This document shows positions 3,365 through 19,979 of a stretch of 20,000 bases of DNA, in pieces (positions within the stretch are counted from its first letter, which is position 1; each line of letters starts with the position of its first letter). Position numbers and translations under genes: made by a program. The stretch is from an uncultured virus (IMG/VR IMGVR_UViG_3300027707_000912) (Duplodnaviria > Heunggongvirae > Uroviricota > Caudoviricetes). Location of the stretch: the IMG/VR virus record IMGVR_UViG_3300027707_000912. The stretch is one strand, 5' to 3'. The notes beneath the pieces were generated by a model, which worked only from the letters and a program-made list of their open reading frames with translations, had not been told where the DNA came from and did not search any database.

Positions 3365-3513
3365 CTATTTTCTCTCTTGCGCCATTCTAAACATATCACT
3401 GTGCGATTGTAAACGTCACCGGTCCATGTCCAACGCACACACTCCCACTCTGGCCATTTCTTAACTGGTTCTTGTGCAAGGGCTAGCATCAATATCCATT
3501 CGTACATGATCAT
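3352..3513 (-). CDS. 53-aa paralog of 3119..3364 (MIMYEWILMLALAQEPVKKWPEWECVRWTWTGDVYNRTVICLEWRKRENRWKP)
   Basis: Translated by hand; shares the CVR..W.GDV.NRT..C motif; ATGA-coupled to the upstream ORF. Alternative start at 3507. Confidence 0.75.
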   Translation of the reverse strand: MIMYEWILMLALAQEPVKKWPEWECVRWTWTGDVYNRTVICLEWRKRENRWKP

Positions 3514-3623
3514 TTTCTATCTTTGAGCCAATCTTTAAACATGACACAAAATATAGCCACTAATGGAGTCATTGACAATAAGAACAGCAGATCATTGAAT
3601 GTGATAATAATGTTGAAGTACAT
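3510..3623 (-). CDS. 37-aa membrane peptide MYFNIIITFNDLLFLLSMTPLVAIFCVMFKDWLKDRK
   Basis: AAGGAA RBS; fills the gap in the operon; hydrophobic helix with basic tail. Confidence 0.6.
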   Translation of the reverse strand: MYFNIIITFNDLLFLLSMTPLVAIFCVMFKDWLKDRK

Positions 3624-3634
3624 ACGTTCCTTTG

Positions 3635-4249
3635 TTAATTTTTAGCATAATCTTCGCGTTCTTTCTTTTCACGAGCTTCGCGTTCTTTTTGTTGTTGACG
3701 AATAACTAGATTTCTCTTGACAACCTTTTCTTCATAAATTCGTTTTTCTTCCATCTGGCCGTAAATGCCAACACCGCCCATGGCAAATGCAAATACAATC
3801 ACTGACCCTGCTAGGAAATACATGCCAAAAATAAACGTATCAGCCATTTTTTTCTTGTGTGCTAGTTCACGTTCTTCTTCTGCACGTTGGGCTTCTGCAC
3901 GGGCTTTGAACAGCCTGGTGCGCTCGGTAATCATTTGTTCCCAGATTTGAGGTTTACCTAACTGCCAAAGAATCATGTCTTTGAGTTCACGCTCTGCTTG
4001 ACGTAGGGCATCACTATGCATGGCAATTTGTAGGGCTTCGTGCCCCAATTCAGCATCAGTTTTGCCCAGTATGTTAGCTTTGGCTTTTAACTTTGTTCGT
4101 TCACGATGTATAGAATCTGATGATTCAAAGAATTTGCTGAATTGCCCTACTAGACTGTTGATATCCTTGCCCAGAGCTATGGCTTGCTTTATATGGCTGA
4201 CCGCAGATTGTGCAGCCGCAAAGGCTAATCCGATAGTGATTGGATCCAT
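3635..4249 (-). CDS. Helical membrane-anchored protein (MDPIT... family)
   Basis: 204-aa ORF; GGAGCGA RBS; TAAATA 25 nt upstream; TM segment FIFGMYFLAGSVIVFAFAMGGVGIY. Confidence 0.85.
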   Translation of the reverse strand: MDPITIGLAFAAAQSAVSHIKQAIALGKDINSLVGQFSKFFESSDSIHRERTKLKAKANILGKTDAELGHEALQIAMHSDALRQAERELKDMILWQLGKPQIWEQMITERTRLFKARAEAQRAEEERELAHKKKMADTFIFGMYFLAGSVIVFAFAMGGVGIYGQMEEKRIYEEKVVKRNLVIRQQQKEREAREKKEREDYAKN

Positions 4250-10552: not shown

Positions 10553-10621
10553 ATGAAAACGTATCAATTCATTGTAACAGTTTTAATTGTTATATTTGTT
10601 TTGGTACATGTTTTCATGTAA
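10553..10621 (+). CDS. 22-aa hydrophobic peptide MKTYQFIVTVLIVIFVLVHVFM
   Basis: AAGG RBS; same TAA-T-ATG junction; single TM helix ending just before the tmRNA. Confidence 0.55.
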   Translation: MKTYQFIVTVLIVIFVLVHVFM

Positions 10622-10624
10622 GGA

Positions 10625-10956
10625 ATTGTTGTAATCCCTTCAAAGTGAAGGCATTCTGGACGCGGGTTCGACTCCCGCCAGGTCCACCAAAAGGGCACTA
10701 CACCCCTCTTAATAATGGGCAACCTTGTAGTGCGTTTTTGATGGGCCTGCCATGGTTTCGACAGGGTGAGATAATAGAGACGGCAACACAGTAGGCGATG
10801 ACTGTAAATCAAGCAAAACTCGTAAATGCAAACGCAAATACATTCAAGTTTATGCAAGTTGACTTCGACATTTCAGCAATGAATGACGAAGAATTTGCAA
10901 TCGCAGCCTAAGAAACTGCACTTGCGAGGTAGTTATACCTTGTCACCAAAAATAGC
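10625..10956 (+). ncRNA. ssrA: Circularly permuted two-piece tmRNA; tag ANANTFKFMQVDFDISAMNDEEFAIAA
   Basis: T-arm GCGGG-TTCGACT-CCCGC and CAGGTCC-ACCA (to 10689) lie upstream of the 5' strand GGGCCTG (10743-10749), giving G3:U70. AGGGTG pairs with CATTCT. Tag ORF 10828-10911 ends in AIAA-stop. Outer ends approximate. Confidence 0.92.
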
Positions 10957-10983
10957 AGGAACCCGCTTTGGCGGGTTTCTTTT
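10957..10983 (+). terminator. Intrinsic terminator after tmRNA
   Basis: AGGAACCCGC-TTTG-GCGGGTTTCT-TTT. Confidence 0.85.
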
Positions 10984-16034: not shown

Positions 16035-16245
16035 TTGACACAACGACTAAATAAATGTATACTAGAGACTAGTTAGATAGTTGAGTAAATTCTTTTTGCC
16101 AAATGTGCAAATAGTGGTTGACACAGAGACTAAATAACTATACAATAAGAACATGCACAAGCAACTGCCTGTGTAAGCCGTTGTAGAAATACAACAAAGA
16201 AAGATTTCAAAAGTGGTTGACGAAGATGCTGAAAGGCATTATAAT
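16035..16245 (+). promoter_or_regulatory. Three tandem sigma70 promoters of the tRNA operon
   Basis: TTGACA-17-TATACT (16035-16063), TTGACA-17-TACAAT (16118-16146), TTGACG-17-TATAAT (16217-16245). The first two carry GACTAAATAA in the spacer. Confidence 0.85.
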
Positions 16246-16304: not shown

Positions 16305-16451
16305 ATGCAATCAACTGTTAAACATCAACAATTTAATACGATGCCTAAACTGGCAGGTGTAATAGCCTGTTCTTGGTTATCGATTAATGGCGGAAGTTTA
16401 TCATATGATCGTACACCAGAGATTCGCAGGGTCCGGGAGACCGTAATGTAA
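16305..16451 (+). CDS. Putative attenuator leader peptide, 48 aa (MQSTVKHQQFNTMPKLAGVIACSWLSINGGSLSYDRTPEIRRVRETVM)
   Basis: Lies between the promoters and a terminator; its 3' end contains the antiterminator strand; weak GAG RBS. Confidence 0.65.
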   Translation: MQSTVKHQQFNTMPKLAGVIACSWLSINGGSLSYDRTPEIRRVRETVM

Positions 16452-16515
16452 GCTAAAGTTTACATAACAAACTTCAAGGACCCTAGGATTAAAAACCCTG
16501 GGGTTTTTTGTTTTT
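16428..16515 (+). terminator. Terminator/antiterminator switch upstream of the tRNA array
   Basis: Terminator AAGGACCCTAGG (16476-16487)/CCTGGGGTTTTT (16497-16508) plus T tract; competing pairing AGGGTCC (16428-16434)/GGACCCT (16478-16484). Confidence 0.75.
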
Positions 16516-16745
16516 AGACGCTGAGATTGCCAAGGCAGTCGTTGAAGCAAAGTGTGAAGATACCAGTAACGAGGACTGGGCTAGGCACTATAAACATCTA
16601 GCAAACGGGCGGCCTGTAGGATGAAGCACTTCTTCTAGTGTGAAAAATTACAGCGTATTAAAGCATATTCCGAAACTAGAATGTTTAGGGGATAAGGCCA
16701 CAAGCCGAGTATGCTTTAATACACGCATTGGAAACAGTGCGTTAA

Positions 16746-16837: not shown

Positions 16838-16914
16838 GTGGGTGTGCCGCTGAATGGTTAGGCTCCGGATTGCAAATCCGTTCCATGCAGGTTCGAGTCC
16901 TGTCACCCACTCCA
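16838..16914 (+). tRNA. tRNA-Cys(GCA)
   Basis: GTGGGTG/CACCCAC-T-CCA; loop TT-GCA-AA; U73. Confidence 0.9.
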
Positions 16915-16919
16915 AATTT

Positions 16920-16993
16920 TCCCGGATAATTAAATGGTATAATAATCGGCTGATAACCGGTCTTTGCAAGTTCGATTCTTGCTCTGGGAACCA
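16920..16993 (+). tRNA. tRNA-Ile(GAT)
   Basis: TCCCGGA/TCTGGGA-A-CCA; ATCGG-CTGATAA-CCGGT. Confidence 0.9.
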
Positions 16994-16997
16994 AGTT

Positions 16998-17056
16998 TAG
17001 GATAGCAACAGCAAACTCAAAAATTCTACTTTTAATGGAAAAAAGATGCTATCCTG
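16998..17056 (+). ncRNA. ACAGCAA element 1 with Lys(TTT) anticodon stem-loop
   Basis: AGGATAGCA/TGCTATCCT closing stem; TTCTA-CTTTTAA-TGGAA. Confidence 0.65.
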
Positions 17057-17064
17057 TTTTTTAC

Positions 17065-17139
17065 ACTGTCGTCGTCTAGTGGCTAGGACGCTACCCTTTC
17101 AAGGTGGAGAAGCGGGATCGATACCCGTCGACAGTACCA
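17065..17139 (+). tRNA. tRNA-Glu(TTC)
   Basis: ACTGTCG/CGACAGT-A-CCA; CTACC-CTTTCAA-GGTGG; T-loop ATCGATA. Confidence 0.88.
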
Positions 17140-17143
17140 ACAT

Positions 17144-17218
17144 GCCGTTGTAGCTCTCTGGGAGGGTAACTCGTTGTCTGCGAGACTTAGGTGGGTTCGA
17201 TTCCCATCAGCGGCGCCA
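17144..17218 (+). tRNA. tRNA-Asp(GTC)
   Basis: GCCGTTG/CAGCGGC-G-CCA; CTCG-TTGTCTG-CGAG with unusual U37. Confidence 0.82.
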
Positions 17219-17225
17219 AATTTAT

Positions 17226-17303
17226 TGTGTTCGAGCAAGCATGGTGTATGCGCTTCGCTGTTAACGAAGAATGAGCTAGGTTCGATCCCTAGGAACACAG
17301 CCA
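17226..17303 (+). tRNA. tRNA-Asn(GTT)
   Basis: TGTGTTC/GAACACA-G-CCA; CTTCG-CTGTTAA-CGAAG. Confidence 0.88.
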
Positions 17304-17310
17304 AACAATT

Positions 17311-17385
17311 GGGGGCAGTAGTGGGCTACGGCGTTGCCTTGCAAGCATCGTGACTAGAAGGGTTCGATTCCCTCGGCCTCCACCA
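17311..17385 (+). tRNA. tRNA-Ala(TGC), atypical D-arm
   Basis: GGGGGC/GCCTCC-A-CCA with G3:U70; loop CT-TGC-AA; D-arm reduced to GTAG-TGGG-CTAC. Confidence 0.72.
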
Positions 17386-17392
17386 ATTTTAT

Positions 17393-17468
17393 CTCGCGTT
17401 CGGTTAGCGGCTATGCCACCTGGTTTGGGGCCAGGATTTCGTGGGTTCGAGTCCCACATGCGAGACCA
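17393..17468 (+). tRNA. tRNA-Pro(TGG)
   Basis: CTCGCGT/ATGCGAG-A-CCA; CCTGG-TTTGGGG-CCAGG. Confidence 0.88.
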
Positions 17469-17472
17469 GTTT

Positions 17473-17535
17473 TAGGATAGCAACAGCAAACATTAAAAAT
17501 CTTTTCTTGAAAAAAAGCCAAAAAATGCTATCCTG
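17473..17535 (+). ncRNA. ACAGCAA element 2 with Ser(TGA)-like anticodon stem-loop
   Basis: AGGATAGCA/TGCTATCCT closing stem; CTTTT-CTTGAAA-AAAAG. Confidence 0.6.
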
Positions 17536-17543
17536 TTTTATTC

Positions 17544-17617
17544 GCCCTATTAGTTAAATGGTAGAACACCTGTTTTGTAATCAGGTAATGGCAGTTCGAT
17601 TCTGTCATGGGGCACCA
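17544..17617 (+). tRNA. tRNA-Thr(TGT)
   Basis: GCCCTAT/ATGGGGC-A-CCA; loop TT-TGT-AA; U31.U39 mismatch. Confidence 0.88.
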
Positions 17618-17621
17618 AGTT

Positions 17622-17678
17622 AAGGATGCGAACAGCAAATTCAAAAATTCAACTTTTAATTGAAAAATAAGCATCCTG
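17622..17678 (+). ncRNA. ACAGCAA element 3 with Lys(TTT) anticodon stem-loop
   Basis: AGGATGC/GCATCCT closing stem; TTCAA-CTTTTAA-TTGAA. Confidence 0.65.
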
Positions 17679-17686
17679 TTTTATTT

Positions 17687-17762
17687 GCTACTTTAGCTGA
17701 TGTGGTCATAGCGGCGGTCTGAAGAACCGTTGAACCAGGTTCGATCCCTGGAGGTAGCACCA
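17687..17762 (+). tRNA. tRNA-Phe(GAA) copy 1
   Basis: GCTACTT/AGGTAGC-A-CCA; GCGGT-CTGAAGA-ACCGT. Confidence 0.9.
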
Positions 17763-17780
17763 AGTTTTTAGGAGAATTGA

Positions 17781-17909
17781 ATGGCAAATGTCAAAAAAGG
17801 TAACCTAACAGCGCCTCCACAATGGTGGAAGCATTTGAAAGATTGGAAACGGGTGTTCTGGAAATCAGAACGCCAAGCCCAAAAGCGTAATATCAACAAA
17901 GGAGAATGA
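17781..17909 (+). CDS. 42-aa basic Trp-rich peptide MANVKKGNLTAPPQWWKHLKDWKRVFWKSERQAQKRNINKGE
   Basis: AGGAGA RBS; embedded in the tRNA array. Confidence 0.75.
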   Translation: MANVKKGNLTAPPQWWKHLKDWKRVFWKSERQAQKRNINKGE

Positions 17910-17910
17910 C

Positions 17911-17989
17911 ATGAAACGTACAGGTAAACTGTAGTGTCATCCTAGACCCCCGTATGGTCCTGGATGGCACGTAAAAGAAAACATTTACG
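17911..17989 (+). other. Minigene MKRTGKL-TAG followed by two hairpins
   Basis: AAGGAGA RBS; stop at 17932-17934; GTGTCATCC..GACC-CCCGTAT-GGTC..GGATGGCAC, then CGTAAA/TTTACG. Confidence 0.5.
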
Positions 17990-17996
17990 AATCCAT

Positions 17997-18072
17997 CCAC
18001 AGCTGGCGTTAACGGTAGCGTACTCGGCTCTTAACCGATGAGGTGTCAGTTCGAATCTGACGCTGTGGACCA
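17997..18072 (+). tRNA. tRNA-Lys(CTT)
   Basis: CCACAGC/GCTGTGG-A-CCA; TCGG-CTCTTAA-CCGA. Confidence 0.85.
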
Positions 18073-18075
18073 TAT

Positions 18076-18150
18076 GGGGGTATAATTCAAAGGCTAGAAT
18101 AGCCGGCTTTTAACCGGTCTATCAGGGTTCGAGTCCCTGTGCCCCTACCA
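18076..18150 (+). tRNA. tRNA-Lys(TTT)
   Basis: GGGGGTA/TGCCCCT-A-CCA; GCCGG-CTTTTAA-CCGGT. Confidence 0.9.
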
Positions 18151-18228
18151 TATAAAAACACATTAGAAGCCTTCGTGACTGTAGGCAAGTAGGTCTCTAA
18201 GTCGTTTCCGACTAGTGTGTTTCTATAT

Positions 18229-18304
18229 GGTAACGTAGCATAGTGGCTAATGCACCACCTTCATACGGTGTTTATCGTGGGTTCGAGTCCCACCGTTACT
18301 ACCA
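18229..18304 (+). tRNA. tRNA with CAT anticodon (elongator Met or Ile2)
   Basis: GGTAACG/CGTTACT-A-CCA; CACC-TTCATAC-GGTG; lacks the initiator GGG/CCC pairs. Confidence 0.85.
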
Positions 18305-18307
18305 AGT

Positions 18308-18520
18308 TTTGTAAGTGTCAGCAAGAGAATGTCATGCTGTCTAGGTTTCTTCGAAGGACCGAAACAGTAGAAGGTGATGGGTTCAACTCCCAACCACTCG
18401 CAAGGGTGGTGTCTGTAACGGAGACAAACTGGACTAGTATCCCAAGTGACGTACCGAATCCCGCTCGAGCTTGTTAATTCGGGTGAATGGTTCCAATAAT
18501 GTGGTGGAACTACTTACAAA
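18308..18520 (+). ncRNA. About 213-nt multibranched structured RNA, unassigned
   Basis: Closing stem TTTGTAAGT/ACTTACAAA followed by CAGCAA; inner ATGTCAT/GTGACGT domain with TGGG-TTCAACT-CCCA and ACCACTC-GCAA-GGGTGGT. Confidence 0.65.
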
Positions 18521-18528
18521 TTCAATAT

Positions 18529-18604
18529 CTCTCTAAAGTGTTACCTGGTTGCATCCGCGGTTTGGGGCCGTGTGGTCTTGGTTCGAATCCAAGTAGGGAG
18601 ACCA
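18529..18604 (+). tRNA. tRNA-Pro(TGG), second divergent gene
   Basis: CTCTCTA/TAGGGAG-A-CCA; CGCGG-TTTGGGG-CCGTG. Confidence 0.85.
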
Positions 18605-18612
18605 GTTTCTGT

Positions 18613-18686
18613 TCGGGAATAGTGTAATGGTAACACTACAGACTTTGACTCTGTCATTCTAGGTTCGAGCCCTAGTTCCCGTGCCA
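18613..18686 (+). tRNA. tRNA-Gln(TTG)
   Basis: CGGGAA/TTCCCG with U1.U72, G73, CCA; ACAGA-CTTTGAC-TCTGT. Confidence 0.9.
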
Positions 18687-18692
18687 ATCAAT

Positions 18693-18769
18693 CGGACCGT
18701 AATTCAATTGGATAGAAAGCAAGTCTTCGAAACTTGAGGTTGGGAGTTCGAATCTCTCCGGTCCGGCCA
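18693..18769 (+). tRNA. tRNA-Arg(TCG)
   Basis: CGGACCG/CGGTCCG-G-CCA; CAAGT-CTTCGAA-ACTTG. Confidence 0.9.
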
Positions 18770-18775
18770 ATCAGT

Positions 18776-18849
18776 GTTGTTCCTAGTGTAGTGGTCGCAC
18801 AACTGTCTGTGAAACAGTTAGAGAGGGTTCGATTCCCCGGTCCAACCCA
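18776..18849 (+). tRNA. tRNA-His(GTG), degenerate or possible pseudogene
   Basis: ACTGT-CTGTGAA-ACAGT intact and G-1:C73 possible, but two acceptor-stem mismatches and a short T-stem. Confidence 0.55.
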
Positions 18850-18863
18850 ATGAATTTATCAAT

Positions 18864-19562
18864 TTAAATTTTAGATAGAATATGTTCAGCTATGTTCTGA
18901 TTAGTGTTGACACCACGGTGAGCTAAATCTCTAGCGAGATCATTCTCAATTATCCTAAAATTATGTAAATCTTCATATTCGATTTGAATTAACTTAATAT
19001 CTAGATTGTTACAGATATGCTGGATAGCTAATGTATTTTTAAAGAAATTCATTTCACTATTAGTATCATTTAGCACCCAGTTTTTCCAAATTTGATCTTT
19101 TGACCAAGGTCCGTAATCTTGTATTACAGAGTTATAATGACGTTCAAATCGATGACGAGATGTTGACAAGTGAACAACTATTTTCGGTTTAAGTTGCGAG
19201 AGCCAATAGTGAGCCATTCTGAATGCAGTGTCATTTGAAGATGAACCTATCCCTAAATTAAAATTTTTGAGATTTAGATTATTGCTCACAATACTAGCCC
19301 AGCAATTTTCGATAGGCAATCCAATGCCGCAAGTATAACTACAACCCAAAGATACCATACTAGGTTCGTTAGAAAATTCGTCACTTCTAAATCCGTAGCT
19401 ATTAAATTTATAGCTGAATTTTTTGTCTAGCCAACCAAACTTAACCATCTCGTCATATCTATTTGCTACGTTTTCAACATACAGCTCTTTAGTATCCATA
19501 GGTAACCATTCTAATGTTTGTTTGGCTTTCGTTGAATATTGGTGTAATATTTTATTGAACAT
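18864..19562 (-). CDS. Hypothetical protein, SGNH/GDSL-hydrolase-like, antisense within the tRNA array
   Basis: LGCSYTCG (block I-like), NLGIGSSSND (block II-like), DLAHRG (DxxH). Likely start MFNKIL at 19562, just after TAAATA. Confidence 0.7.
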   Translation of the reverse strand: MFNKILHQYSTKAKQTLEWLPMDTKELYVENVANRYDEMVKFGWLDKKFSYKFNSYGFRSDEFSNEPSMVSLGCSYTCGIGLPIENCWASIVSNNLNLKNFNLGIGSSSNDTAFRMAHYWLSQLKPKIVVHLSTSRHRFERHYNSVIQDYGPWSKDQIWKNWVLNDTNSEMNFFKNTLAIQHICNNLDIKLIQIEYEDLHNFRIIENDLARDLAHRGVNTNQNIAEHILSKI

Positions 19563-19606
19563 GCAAATATTTATTTGCACAACTAGTATAGGAAAATAAT
19601 TTTCAT

Positions 19607-19682
19607 GCTACTTTAGCTGATGTGGTCATAGCGGCGGTCTGAAGAATCGTTGAACCAGGTTCGATTCCTGGAGGTAGCACCA
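19607..19682 (+). tRNA. tRNA-Phe(GAA) copy 2
   Basis: Identical to 17687..17762 at 74 of 76 positions. Confidence 0.9.
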
Positions 19683-19690
19683 AGACACAT

Positions 19691-19774
19691 GCGAGAGTGG
19701 TGGAATGGTATACACAGCAGACTTAAAATCTGCCGCCGCAAGGCATACGGGTTCGAGTCCCGTCTCTCGCACCA
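19691..19774 (+). tRNA. tRNA-Leu(TAA)
   Basis: GCGAGAG/CTCTCGC-A-CCA; GCAGA-CTTAAAA-TCTGC; long variable arm. Confidence 0.93.
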
Positions 19775-19775
19775 T

Positions 19776-19850
19776 ACCGCCTTAGTATAATGGATAATAC
19801 AAAGAGCTTCTACCTCTTGAATATGGGTTCGATTCCTGTAGGCGGTACCA
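19776..19850 (+). tRNA. tRNA-Arg(TCT)
   Basis: ACCGCCT/AGGCGGT-A-CCA; AAGAG-CTTCTAC-CTCTT. Confidence 0.9.
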
Positions 19851-19858
19851 GATAAAGG

Positions 19859-19887
19859 TTGACAATAAAAAAAATAGAGTATATAAT
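19859..19887 (+). promoter_or_regulatory. Consensus sigma70 promoter internal to the tRNA array
   Basis: TTGACA-17 nt-TATAAT. Confidence 0.88.
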
Positions 19888-19895
19888 ACATATAT

Positions 19896-19979
19896 GCCCC
19901 GGTGGTGGAATGGTAGACACGCTGGTCTTAGAAGCCAGTGTCGCAAGGCGTGAGAGTTCGAGTCTCTCCTGGGGCACCA
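19896..19979 (+). tRNA. tRNA-Leu(TAG)
   Basis: GCCCCGG/CTGGGGC-A-CCA; CTGGT-CTTAGAA-GCCAG; long variable arm. Confidence 0.93.

Follow-up and report, generated by a model that had tools for sequence, protein, structure and literature searches.

INTRODUCTION

Ro60/Y-RNA particles are known RNA-surveillance machines, and to our knowledge only a few bacterial or phage Y RNAs have been described, all of them encoded next to canonical TROVE genes. Anticodon loops can also be copied outside tRNA, as in the thrS operator of Escherichia coli, an mRNA hairpin that imitates such a loop to bind the protein reading it. The Y RNAs used for comparison here are those of the YrlA type, represented by Rfam family RF02553 (Chen et al. 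2014, PMC4201824), and Yrl1 and Yrl2 of phage phiLo (PMC12135203); the latter report describes the phiLo Ro60 as binding two upstream Y-like RNAs and forming a complex with the host PNPase. The subject of this work is a set of three small elements (el1, el2 and el3) within a 20,000-nt stretch of DNA (the window) from a large (giant) uncultured freshwater phage, IMG/VR record IMGVR_UViG_3300027707_000912. They are best read as belonging to the Ro60/Y-RNA kind, in a variant form that unexpectedly resembles the Class I RNAs of Dictyostelium.

Class I RNAs, as set out in PMC7919456, are 42–65 nt long. Only the structure of their short terminal stem is conserved; an 11-nt motif lies beside its 5’ strand, the RNAs begin with AAG and finish with CUGU, and the remainder is variable. 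Kjellin et al. (2021) report no Class I RNAs outside Dictyostelia (PMC7919456). In the window, el1–el3 are confirmed as genuine small-RNA genes in which a conserved handle is joined to a look-alike of the tRNA anticodon arm, and this handle marks a large, previously undescribed RNA family beside a Ro60-like gene in many phages. The best explanation overall, held here at a probability of roughly 0.55, is that the elements encode Y-RNA-like RNAs derived from a tRNA precursor, with the handle docking on a Ro60-like ring and the remaining module mimicking an anticodon arm.

RESULTS AND DISCUSSION

Three window elements share a handle and an anticodon-type hairpin

The elements are embedded in a plus-strand array of about 21 tRNA genes that runs to the end of the window, which also contains rIIA and rIIB genes. 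Each is 57–63 nt long, and the three align with a mean column identity of 84%. Their common layout consists of a terminal stem, (U)AGGAU(A)GC / GC(U)AUCCU(G), with an unpaired ACAGCAA after its 5’ strand, followed by an A-rich linker, a hairpin in which 5 bp close a 7-nt loop of the form CU-NNN-AA, a second A-rich linker and then GUUUU. The 3’ ends read CUGU, while the 5’ ends read AAG in el3 and UAG in el1 and el2. The term handle is used here for a (U/A)AG-led terminal stem of 7–9 bp, the unpaired ACAGCAA by its 5’ strand and the CUGU 3’ end. A first-pass annotation of the same DNA had described the three ~60-nt elements and their layout, and every part of that description, including the positions, was confirmed by reading and alignment, as was the identity of the CUUUUAA loop of el1 and el3 with that of the genuine tRNA-Lys(UUU) at 18076–18150.

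Neither ARAGORN nor Rfam calls a tRNA at el1–el3. The elements lack a D arm and a T arm as well as an acceptor stem and CCA, and hence a tRNA cloverleaf. The AGGATNNNNACAGCAAA pattern has three exact occurrences in the window, against 0.81 expected even when up to two mismatches are allowed. RNAfold z-scores are modest (-1.8 to -2.15). The first element sits 5 nt past tRNA-Ile(GAU) and 8 nt ahead of tRNA-Glu(UUC), and the second is flanked by tRNA-Pro(UGG) and tRNA-Thr(UGU). Sister elements of el2 carry the same stem with the loops CUGUAAA, CUCGAAA, AUUGAAA and CUUGAAC. Coordinates are collected in Table 1.

Table 1. Positions of the elements, their parts and the surrounding features in the window
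Feature	Position	Strand	Evidence
Element 1 (el1), handle + anticodon-arm mimic, loop CUUUUAA (UUU)	16998..17056	+	sequence, alignment, model R1
el1 closing stem, 5’ strand: U16998, then AGGAUAGC(A)	16999..17007	+	
el1 ACAGCAA, unpaired, immediately following the closing stem’s 5’ strand	17008..17014	+	
el1 central hairpin: UUCUA (17024–17028), CUUUUAA (17029–17035), UGGAA (17036–17040)	17024..17040	+	
el1 closing stem, 3’ strand: (U)GCUAUCCU-G, then six U	17047..17056	+	
el1 match to R1, 78.4 bits	16997..17061	+	model R1
Element 2 (el2), handle + anticodon-arm mimic, loop CUUGAAA (UGA)	17473..17535	+	sequence, alignment, model R1
el2 closing stem, 5’ strand: AGGAUAGC	17474..17481	+	
el2 ACAGCAA	17483..17489	+	
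el2 central hairpin: CUUUU (17501–17505), CUUGAAA (17506–17512), AAAAG (17513–17517)	17501..17517	+	
el2 closing stem, 3’ strand: GCUAUCCU-G	17527..17535	+	
el2 match to R1, 82.4 bits	17472..17540	+	model R1
Element 3 (el3), handle + anticodon-arm mimic, loop CUUUUAA (UUU)	17622..17678	+	sequence, alignment, model R1
el3 closing stem, 5’ strand: AGGAUGC	17623..17629	+	
el3 ACAGCAA	17632..17638	+	
el3 central hairpin: UUCAA (17648–17652), CUUUUAA (17653–17659), UUGAA (17660–17664)	17648..17664	+	
el3 closing stem, 3’ strand: GCAUCCU-G	17671..17678	+	
el3 match to R1, 72.4 bits	17621..17683	+	model R1
tRNA array around the elements	16838..19979	+	ARAGORN, Rfam
Three sigma-70-like promoters upstream of the tRNA array, each with 11/12 consensus matches	16035..16245	+	

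A covarying RNA gene family embedded in tRNA arrays

The elements belong to a family of RNA genes in which both handle and hairpin covary and which is embedded in tRNA arrays. A search with a 23-base version of the layout, fixing AGGAT, AACAGCAAA and ATCCTGTTT, returned at least 147 loci in IMG/VR viral contigs, giving 93 distinct sequences, and five loci in 596 Gb of bacterial genomes. One of these five is a chance match within a Dyadobacter coding region, another lies on a 526-base contig, and the other three fall within tRNA arrays on two metagenome-assembled contigs, one of which is labelled Polynucleobacter. Among 162 distinct short instances, a same-strand tRNA ends within 12 nt upstream in 128 (mode 5 nt, 96 cases), a tRNA starts within 15 nt downstream in 112 (mode 9–10 nt), and a same-strand tRNA adjoins on at least one side in 145.

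A covariance model, R1, was built from 101 short forms and gave 190 matches across 100 sources. The covariation figures lean toward structure, since the alignment was made to fit R1 and its sequences are relatives of one another: over 106 distinct rows, 89.5% of cells are paired against 40–47% when the 3’ partners are slid, double-sided changes occur at all five hairpin pairs and at three closing-stem pairs, and the observed covariation score was reached by none of 500 shuffles. The closing stem comprises nine pairs with 89.7% of cells paired, and its three covarying pairs change between AU and GC or among CG, GC and UA. Alignment columns 13–18, at the ACAGCAA motif, are invariant across the same rows.

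The loops were assessed by comparing the best hairpin of each of 113 distinct short elements with mononucleotide shuffles, using a hairpin picker that mis-registers some AU-rich cases. A 7-nt loop was found in 90 of the 113 (shuffled mean 14.8), U33 together with a purine at position 37 in 66 (shuffled mean 2.5) and a CU...AA loop in 54 (shuffled mean 0.3). As counter-examples, 23 of the 113 have another loop length, and U33, present in 71 of the 90 seven-nucleotide loops, is missing in 19. Together with the covariation these statistics support the earlier description of non-tRNA RNAs that display an anticodon-type stem-loop. The triplets within canonical loops are UUU (24), UGA (17), UCU and GUA (5 each), CGA and GCU (3 each), UAU, GUU, UGU and GGA (2 each) and UCA (1). 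Differing triplets occur on one and the same stem, as with UAGA/UCUA, which carries UUU, UCU, UGU or GCU, and within stem families the middle loop position, 35, is the most variable and position 37 the least.

One of the bacterial sequences has a peculiarity of its own. On contig CAUYTX010000437.1 (14 kb; loci L162 and L163), the element-bearing tRNA array is present twice in mirror orientation, which represents either an inverted duplication or an assembly artefact.

A Ro60-like gene accompanies the handle RNAs

In four large relatives, a gene for a 470-aa protein lies directly downstream of two to four handle RNAs. The protein consists of DUF2828 and DUF7788 in Pfam, and its AlphaFold model, predicted from a 68-sequence alignment, has a pLDDT of 92.2 and a pTM of 0.91. 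When this model was compared with the PDB using Foldseek, the top 12 matches were all Ro60/TROVE proteins, from Xenopus, human, Deinococcus (Rsr) and the Thermus phage phiLo, and extended over the full length (E 1e-7 to 3e-5, TM 0.38–0.63, ~500 columns). The predicted structure combines a HEAT-repeat ring with a vWA domain bearing a MIDAS motif, the features by which Ro60/TROVE proteins are recognized, and the MIDAS residues D276, S278 and S280 are invariant in the protein alignment. The partner of the handle is probably a divergent Ro60-like protein with DUF2828 and a vWA domain. Of the neighbour tabulation proposed in the first-pass annotation, the Ro60/TROVE arm proved decisive. Of 33 records that bear elements, 25 encode the DUF2828 protein. 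The other arm yielded nothing, as RtcB, T4 Rnl1 and RNA_ligase were not found in five large relatives; the negative for Rnl1 says little, since its control genomes gave no signal.

To obtain loci independently of the DNA pattern, 80 were collected by the DUF2828 protein alone (64–92% identity), of which 66 have at least 750 nt upstream. Within 750 nt ahead of the gene and on its strand, a scaffold, scored as a 7-bp stem plus CAGCAA, is present at 64 of these 66 loci; in the same region it is present at none of the 66 either on the opposite strand or after shuffling. It was found inside the gene at 3/66 loci, in the 750 nt downstream at 3/64 and at 1500–2250 nt upstream at 6/52. The closing stems at these loci vary (AGGAU, AGGUU, AGAAU, AGAGU and GGGAU), while CAGCAA is retained, as are (U/A)AG in front and G-U-U behind; position -1 of the scaffold is U (125 cases) or A (30), G occupies position +1 in 143 of 173 and U position +2 in 123. 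The window-type model R1 gave 56 matches within the protein-anchored loci, 56/56 of them on the gene strand, and at 31 of the 66 loci a match ends within 100 nt of the start codon. The handle family is closely linked in genomes to the Ro60-like gene. The distribution of the scaffolds also supports the proposal, made at first pass, that ACAGCAA may be a protein-binding tag.

The partner gene is widespread in cultured phages. By tblastn, the DUF2828 protein was detected in 704 cultured-phage records, among them Felixounavirus, Listeria, Staphylococcus, Campylobacter, Vibrio and Sinorhizobium phages. Separately, its homologues fall into 6232 clusters at 50% identity. Mycobacteriophage records label the protein ‘Ro-like RNA binding protein’. 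In the E. coli Felixounavirus phage humlepung, a tRNA array downstream of the gene contains three short scaffolds and one long scaffold, the latter a permuted tRNA mimic; all of them follow the scheme AAG-ACCnn ... (N)CAGCAA ... nnGGU-CUGG, and none matches an Rfam family. Sinorhizobium phage phiM12 carries a 33-nt element, a stem plus AACAGCAA, immediately before the gene. The asymmetric CAGCAA is kept between phages whose partner proteins are 36–43% identical. For Bas63, another Felixounavirus, PMC11482910 describes gp130 as Ro60-like, encoded directly upstream of tRNA genes and countering the ppl defence, and gives the authors’ guess that some of the Bas63 ‘tRNAs’ are Y RNAs. Nucleotide searches of cultured-phage DNA returned tRNA similarity only, and literature searches for phage anticodon mimics or decoys, jumbo-phage tRNA-like RNAs, permuted tRNAs and DUF2828 retrieved no description of these RNAs.

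A different kind of RNA was noticed near a DUF2828 gene in Cronobacter phage S13 (NC_028773.1, locus L252). Here, an annotated tRNA-Ser (121 nt) and tRNA-OTHER (113 nt) at 3396–3638 lie ~500 nt downstream of the gene, which is annotated as ‘RNA-binding protein’. Both are tRNA-like RNAs in normal order with the anticodon arm replaced by a large insert containing a hairpin and UUCAGCA, and they may be candidate partners of the Ro60-like protein. The pair may also be counterparts of the ‘species 1/2’ stable RNAs of T4.

The same handle encloses permuted tRNA mimics and other cargos

Twenty-two distinct long forms of 100–140 nt are enclosed by the same handle. In 18 of these, the order behind the closing stem is hairpin, T arm, acceptor stem with a loop of 3–7 nt as its cap, and D arm; the caps contain no CCA, and several are GNRA tetraloops. 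The remaining four have no usable cap or T loop. When rotated in silico at the cap, all 18 are called as a cloverleaf by ARAGORN in at least some rotations. The dominant calls are Arg-UCU, Ile-UAU, Ile-GAU, Trp-CCA, Ser-UGA, Tyr-GUA and Phe-AAA, with two more forms having 6-nt loops, and only ambiguous or minority calls were obtained for L017, the first L038 form and L084. Given that the handle attaches at the 26/27 or 43/44 hinge, the long forms are sealed, permuted tRNA mimics that retain the anticodon arm. Within a broad family of handle plus cargo, which comprises permuted tRNA mimics and other cargos, the three window elements represent the minimal form. This breadth, and the likeness of the handle to Dictyostelium Class I RNAs, had escaped the first-pass annotation.

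Further cargos behind the handle are not tRNA-like and measure ~108–114, 134–166 and 229–240 nt. Examples are found in L159 (8947–9059, 10882–11047 and 11054–11286) and L160 (13518–13897), and on the reverse strand in L157 and L158. Two to four of these larger cargos stand in tandem just before the Ro60-like gene. A gene-proximal cargo of 54–56 nt has an AGAAU/AUUCU stem and a conserved 9-nt loop ending in AUAUC. An Rfam scan of the elements and larger cargos gave no family at threshold.

Comparison with YrlA, Class I RNAs and the thrS operator

Like YrlA and the phiLo Y RNAs, the elements are small RNAs that occur in phages, with 5’ and 3’ ends paired into a terminal stem, and members of their family at the protein-anchored loci are encoded on the same strand beside the gene of a Ro60-type ring protein, a gene that the window itself does not contain. 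A tRNA-mimic module is likewise shared with YrlA, in which, as in the long forms, it comprises a T arm, a capped acceptor stem and a D arm in permuted order. The differences are several. The partner is a divergent DUF2828 protein, the handle has its own ACAGCAA with AG...CUGU ends in place of the YrlA stem, and many copies of the family are scattered across tRNA arrays, kilobases from the protein gene. Whereas the stem of YrlA replaces the anticodon arm, the long forms are joined at 26/27 or 43/44 and keep it; el1–el3, in turn, carry the anticodon-arm mimic only, with no T arm, capped acceptor or D arm. Consistent with this, the RF02553 model gave no match on el1–el3, and only long forms match it, at 26–36 bits against a threshold of 69, with one aligning to the whole model.

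The closest look-alike in Rfam is of eukaryotic origin. RF01414, the Dictyostelium Class I RNA, is the only family that aligns with the short forms, doing so over the full length and on the correct strand, with scores of 17.8, 18.3 and 23.0 bits (the last for el3) that remain below the threshold of 41.5. The Rfam comparison proposed at first pass returned no family at threshold, with RF01414 as its best look-alike. Full-length matches of 21–27 bits were obtained in 10 of 20 sampled loci, and a Felixounavirus element scored 24 bits. The model consensus reads GaUcuC-CUUACAGCAAU...GagAuC-UG. Directly 3’ of the 5’ stem strand, the Class I consensus motif is CCUUACAGCAAU and the phage motif NNNACAGCAAA; the core ACAGCAA is identical and in the same place (7/11 positions), and the first four positions differ. 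The window elements also share with Class I RNAs their length, a terminal stem conserved in structure only, an AAG (el3) or UAG (el1 and el2) start, the CUGU end and a variable A/U-rich remainder. In contrast to the dictyostelid genes with their DUSE promoter, the phage elements belong to a tRNA array that is preceded by sigma-70-like promoters. In Dictyostelium, the RRM protein Rnp1A is the one direct binder of Class I RNAs known, whereas the candidate in the phage family is Ro60-like.

The likeness between handle and Class I RNAs, as read from sequence, may reflect either common descent or convergence. A bolder version, which we consider doubtful, unites the phage RNAs and Class I RNAs in one old family whose AG-stem/ACAGCAA/CUGU handle would dock on DUF2828-type rings, with phages using it as a socket for swapped modules (anticodon arms of different triplets, whole sealed tRNA bodies or other folds). 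These modules would form a set of tRNA baits that the ring particle shows to the host’s tRNA-targeting immunity or turns against it. If true, Class I RNAs, reported as dictyostelid-only and of unknown mechanism since 2004, would gain a candidate protein partner and a mechanism, and a partner would likewise be at hand for the many orphan tRNA mimics of phage tRNA arrays.

The elements resemble the thrS operator in that a hairpin outside tRNA copies an anticodon loop. Unlike that cis-acting leader, which addresses one synthetase, their family consists of free-standing RNAs with many triplets. Among these are serine-type triplets, which seryl-tRNA synthetase does not read.

Proposed mechanism and its weak points

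In the favoured Y-RNA-like explanation, el1–el3 would be genes for RNAs of ~60–65 nt, co-transcribed with the tRNAs from the promoters at ~16.0–16.25 kb, which are the likely source of a tRNA-array precursor transcript. Release would be brought about by the enzymes that trim tRNAs, namely RNase P at the downstream tRNA and 3’-end maturation of the upstream tRNA. Synteny across many phages suggests that the handle docks on the phage Ro60-like ring. The exposed module would then imitate a tRNA anticodon arm, as sister RNAs would imitate whole tRNA bodies with sealed acceptor ends, and because of these two kinds of module the ribonucleoprotein would present tRNA look-alikes to tRNA-reading proteins. 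Counter-defence is the most plausible use, yet the least supported step of the mechanism: the particle might bait or sequester host factors that attack or inspect anticodon loops, or tether a host nuclease as Y RNAs do. Such particles would constitute a second, far more widespread phage Ro60 branch with its own RNA handle and modular tRNA mimics, and would provide tRNA-shaped or anticodon-arm-shaped orphans in phage tRNA arrays with a testable partner. A bridge would likewise open to the Class I RNAs. Tractable E. coli models are at hand, for example Felixounavirus Bas63, in which the Ro60-like gene is reported to counter a defence system (PMC11482910).

Several observations weigh against this explanation. 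The central hairpins are AU-rich and energetically marginal, with a minimum-energy fold of el2 that consists of the closing stem only, so the support for the hairpin comes from covariation and not from folding energy. As the loci behind most of the statistics were gathered by a fixed pattern and share ancestry, the shuffle tests overstate independence. Many cargos in the family are not anticodon-like, including gene-proximal members with 9-nt loops, and for this reason the anticodon look may not be the selected feature. On the protein side, the Pfam TROVE model misses the 470-aa protein in the 10 records searched, the partner being too divergent for it, and a sequence profile ranks Ro60 first at weak E values of 0.02–0.09. 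The DUF2828 gene is absent from 8 of the 33 element-bearing records, all of them incomplete (4–60%), one being a 211-kb record at 60%.

Closer to the window, no Ro60-like gene is found in it or in the 73-kb record G001, and the link in this phage is made through relatives only. In two collinear relatives (72–99% identity to the window) the DUF2828 gene lies 12–15 kb downstream of the el1–el3 region, which in this phage would fall past the end of the window; two 40-mer searches extending the 3’ end of the window found no contig. The orthology of Bas63 gp130 and the DUF2828 protein is inferred from position and family. Finally, the RNA-library data, in which at least 53% of the words of the region occur in six freshwater metatranscriptome runs from six studies and contigs of four runs span el1 and el2 plus adjoining tRNAs, consist of assembled contigs that leave transcription uncertain and ends, strand and level unreadable.

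Alternative explanations

Each of the rival explanations leaves unexplained the invariant asymmetric motif, the gene linkage or the conserved loop geometry. The strongest of them, which is unlikely in our view, holds that the elements are free-standing anticodon-stem-loop decoys with no partner, which titrate or block host anticodon nucleases or modification enzymes and for which the handle provides stability against exonucleases. It readily accommodates loops that copy canonical bacterial ones (CUUUUAA, CUUGAAA, CUGUAAA, CUGUUAA, CUUCUAA, CUUGUAA and CUGCUAA), a triplet that differs among near-identical elements and long forms that show whole tRNA bodies with sealed acceptor ends. Known targets of anticodon nucleases include Lys-UUU, Tyr-GUA, Asn-GUU and Arg-UCU, and the failure to find an RtcB or Rnl-type repair ligase in the phages, within the limits of that search, would also fit. 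The decoy view gives no reason for CAGCAA and the AG...CUGU ends to stay invariant next to a freely covarying stem, for the same handle to surround cargos unlike tRNA, or for handle RNAs to gather at the Ro60-like gene. Moreover, UUU and UGA triplets are also favoured by composition in an AT-rich loop, and no link of the elements to PrrC, AriB or any anticodon nuclease was found.

Passive punctuation of the tRNA precursor is improbable. Here the elements would be guide hairpins for RNase E or RNase P, protectors of tRNA ends or leaky terminators that tune dosage, as the fixed spacing to flanking tRNAs, the stem followed by GUUUU in all three window copies and a flanking AGUUU like the usual tRNA trailer of this array might suggest. 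Most tRNA junctions in the same arrays have no such element, however, and neither a covarying hairpin with a 7-nt loop nor a tRNA-shaped cargo is needed for a processing signal. A simple terminator scan calls none of el1–el3, in which the loop is ~40 nt, and family members that the search pattern does not cover have tails without a U tract, for example GUUAGUC or GUAAAGG; an intrinsic terminator was rejected on these three grounds.

At a marginally lower level of probability, the elements could be selfish or decaying DNA, that is, functionless miniature inverted-repeat insertions or eroded permuted tRNA-like genes. Compensatory changes that preserve both helices are difficult to reconcile with this, as are 7-nt loops with U33/A37 kept across at least 10 stem families, an orientation that always follows the tRNAs or the Ro60-like gene (56/56 model matches, 0/66 on the opposite strand) and the asymmetric CAGCAA shared by phages with distant partner proteins. 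The idea draws on the terminal inverted repeats, on GTTT(T) flanking both sides of el1 and el2, on the resemblance of short forms to long forms minus the tRNA body and on differences in presence among strains, since one RNA-library contig joins 17468 to 17691 and represents a strain without el2, tRNA-Thr and el3. A last idea, that these are functional tRNAs, minimal or in two pieces, which take part in decoding once unusually processed, would account for the canonical anticodon loops and for long forms that rotate into full cloverleaves, but can practically be dismissed. The short forms lack the D and T arms as well as an acceptor stem and CCA, the long-form acceptors are capped by loops of 3–7 nt, some of them GNRA, with no CCA, no ligase gene was found in the five large relatives searched and ordinary tRNAs with the same anticodons are already in the arrays.

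A number of known motifs were also considered and rejected. The GA pairs of a K-turn are not conserved, AGGA as a CsrA site or Shine-Dalgarno-like sequence is buried within the stem, and for Hfq (ARN)3 sites with a U tail the letters are too invariant and the tail is missing in many members. The GTTRRRY of an integron attC-like core is not present. An AACAG/CUGUU pseudoknot is sterically incompatible with the closing stem and shows no covariation, no reverse transcriptase was seen that would go with a retron-like branching G, and complementary anticodons for anticodon–anticodon kissing are mostly absent.

Other features of the window

A further structured RNA candidate of ~213 nt, unannotated, lies between tRNA-Met and tRNA-Pro at 18305–18520 (+). 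Its closing stem, UUUGUAAGU/ACUUACAAA, precedes G-UCAGCAAG, in which CAGCAA is placed alike, and a T-arm-like GGGUUCAACUCCC is present as well; the candidate is kept in the relatives L157, L158 and L160 and has no Rfam match. The bin 18301–18387 shows by far the highest contig depth in four metatranscriptome runs (3072, 70, 514 and 7602), but to judge from loose ends at 18392 a related sequence of higher abundance contributes some of it. High RNA-library contig depth is also seen at 16382–16614 (+), after a 48-aa open reading frame (ORF) at 16305–16451, in a segment that spans a terminator-like GGACCCUAGG...CCCUGGGGUUUUUUGUUUUU and may be an abundant early transcript or small RNA.

Two short ORFs lie within the same part of the window. 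The first, at 17781–17909 (+) inside the tRNA array, encodes 42 aa that are very basic and tryptophan-rich, with no Pfam or PHROG match. The second, at 17913–17936 (+), is a mini-ORF, MKRTGKL, with its own Shine-Dalgarno sequence, and is followed by a hairpin, CAUCCUAGACC...GGUCCUGGAUG, at 17938–17975; the same arrangement of mini-ORF and hairpin is found after short elements in L014 and L024. Farther upstream, at 10573–10980 (+), the window encodes a circularly permuted (two-piece) tmRNA of betaproteobacterial type (132–141 bits). Together with the element-bearing contig labelled Polynucleobacter, this tmRNA type hints weakly at a freshwater Burkholderiales host.

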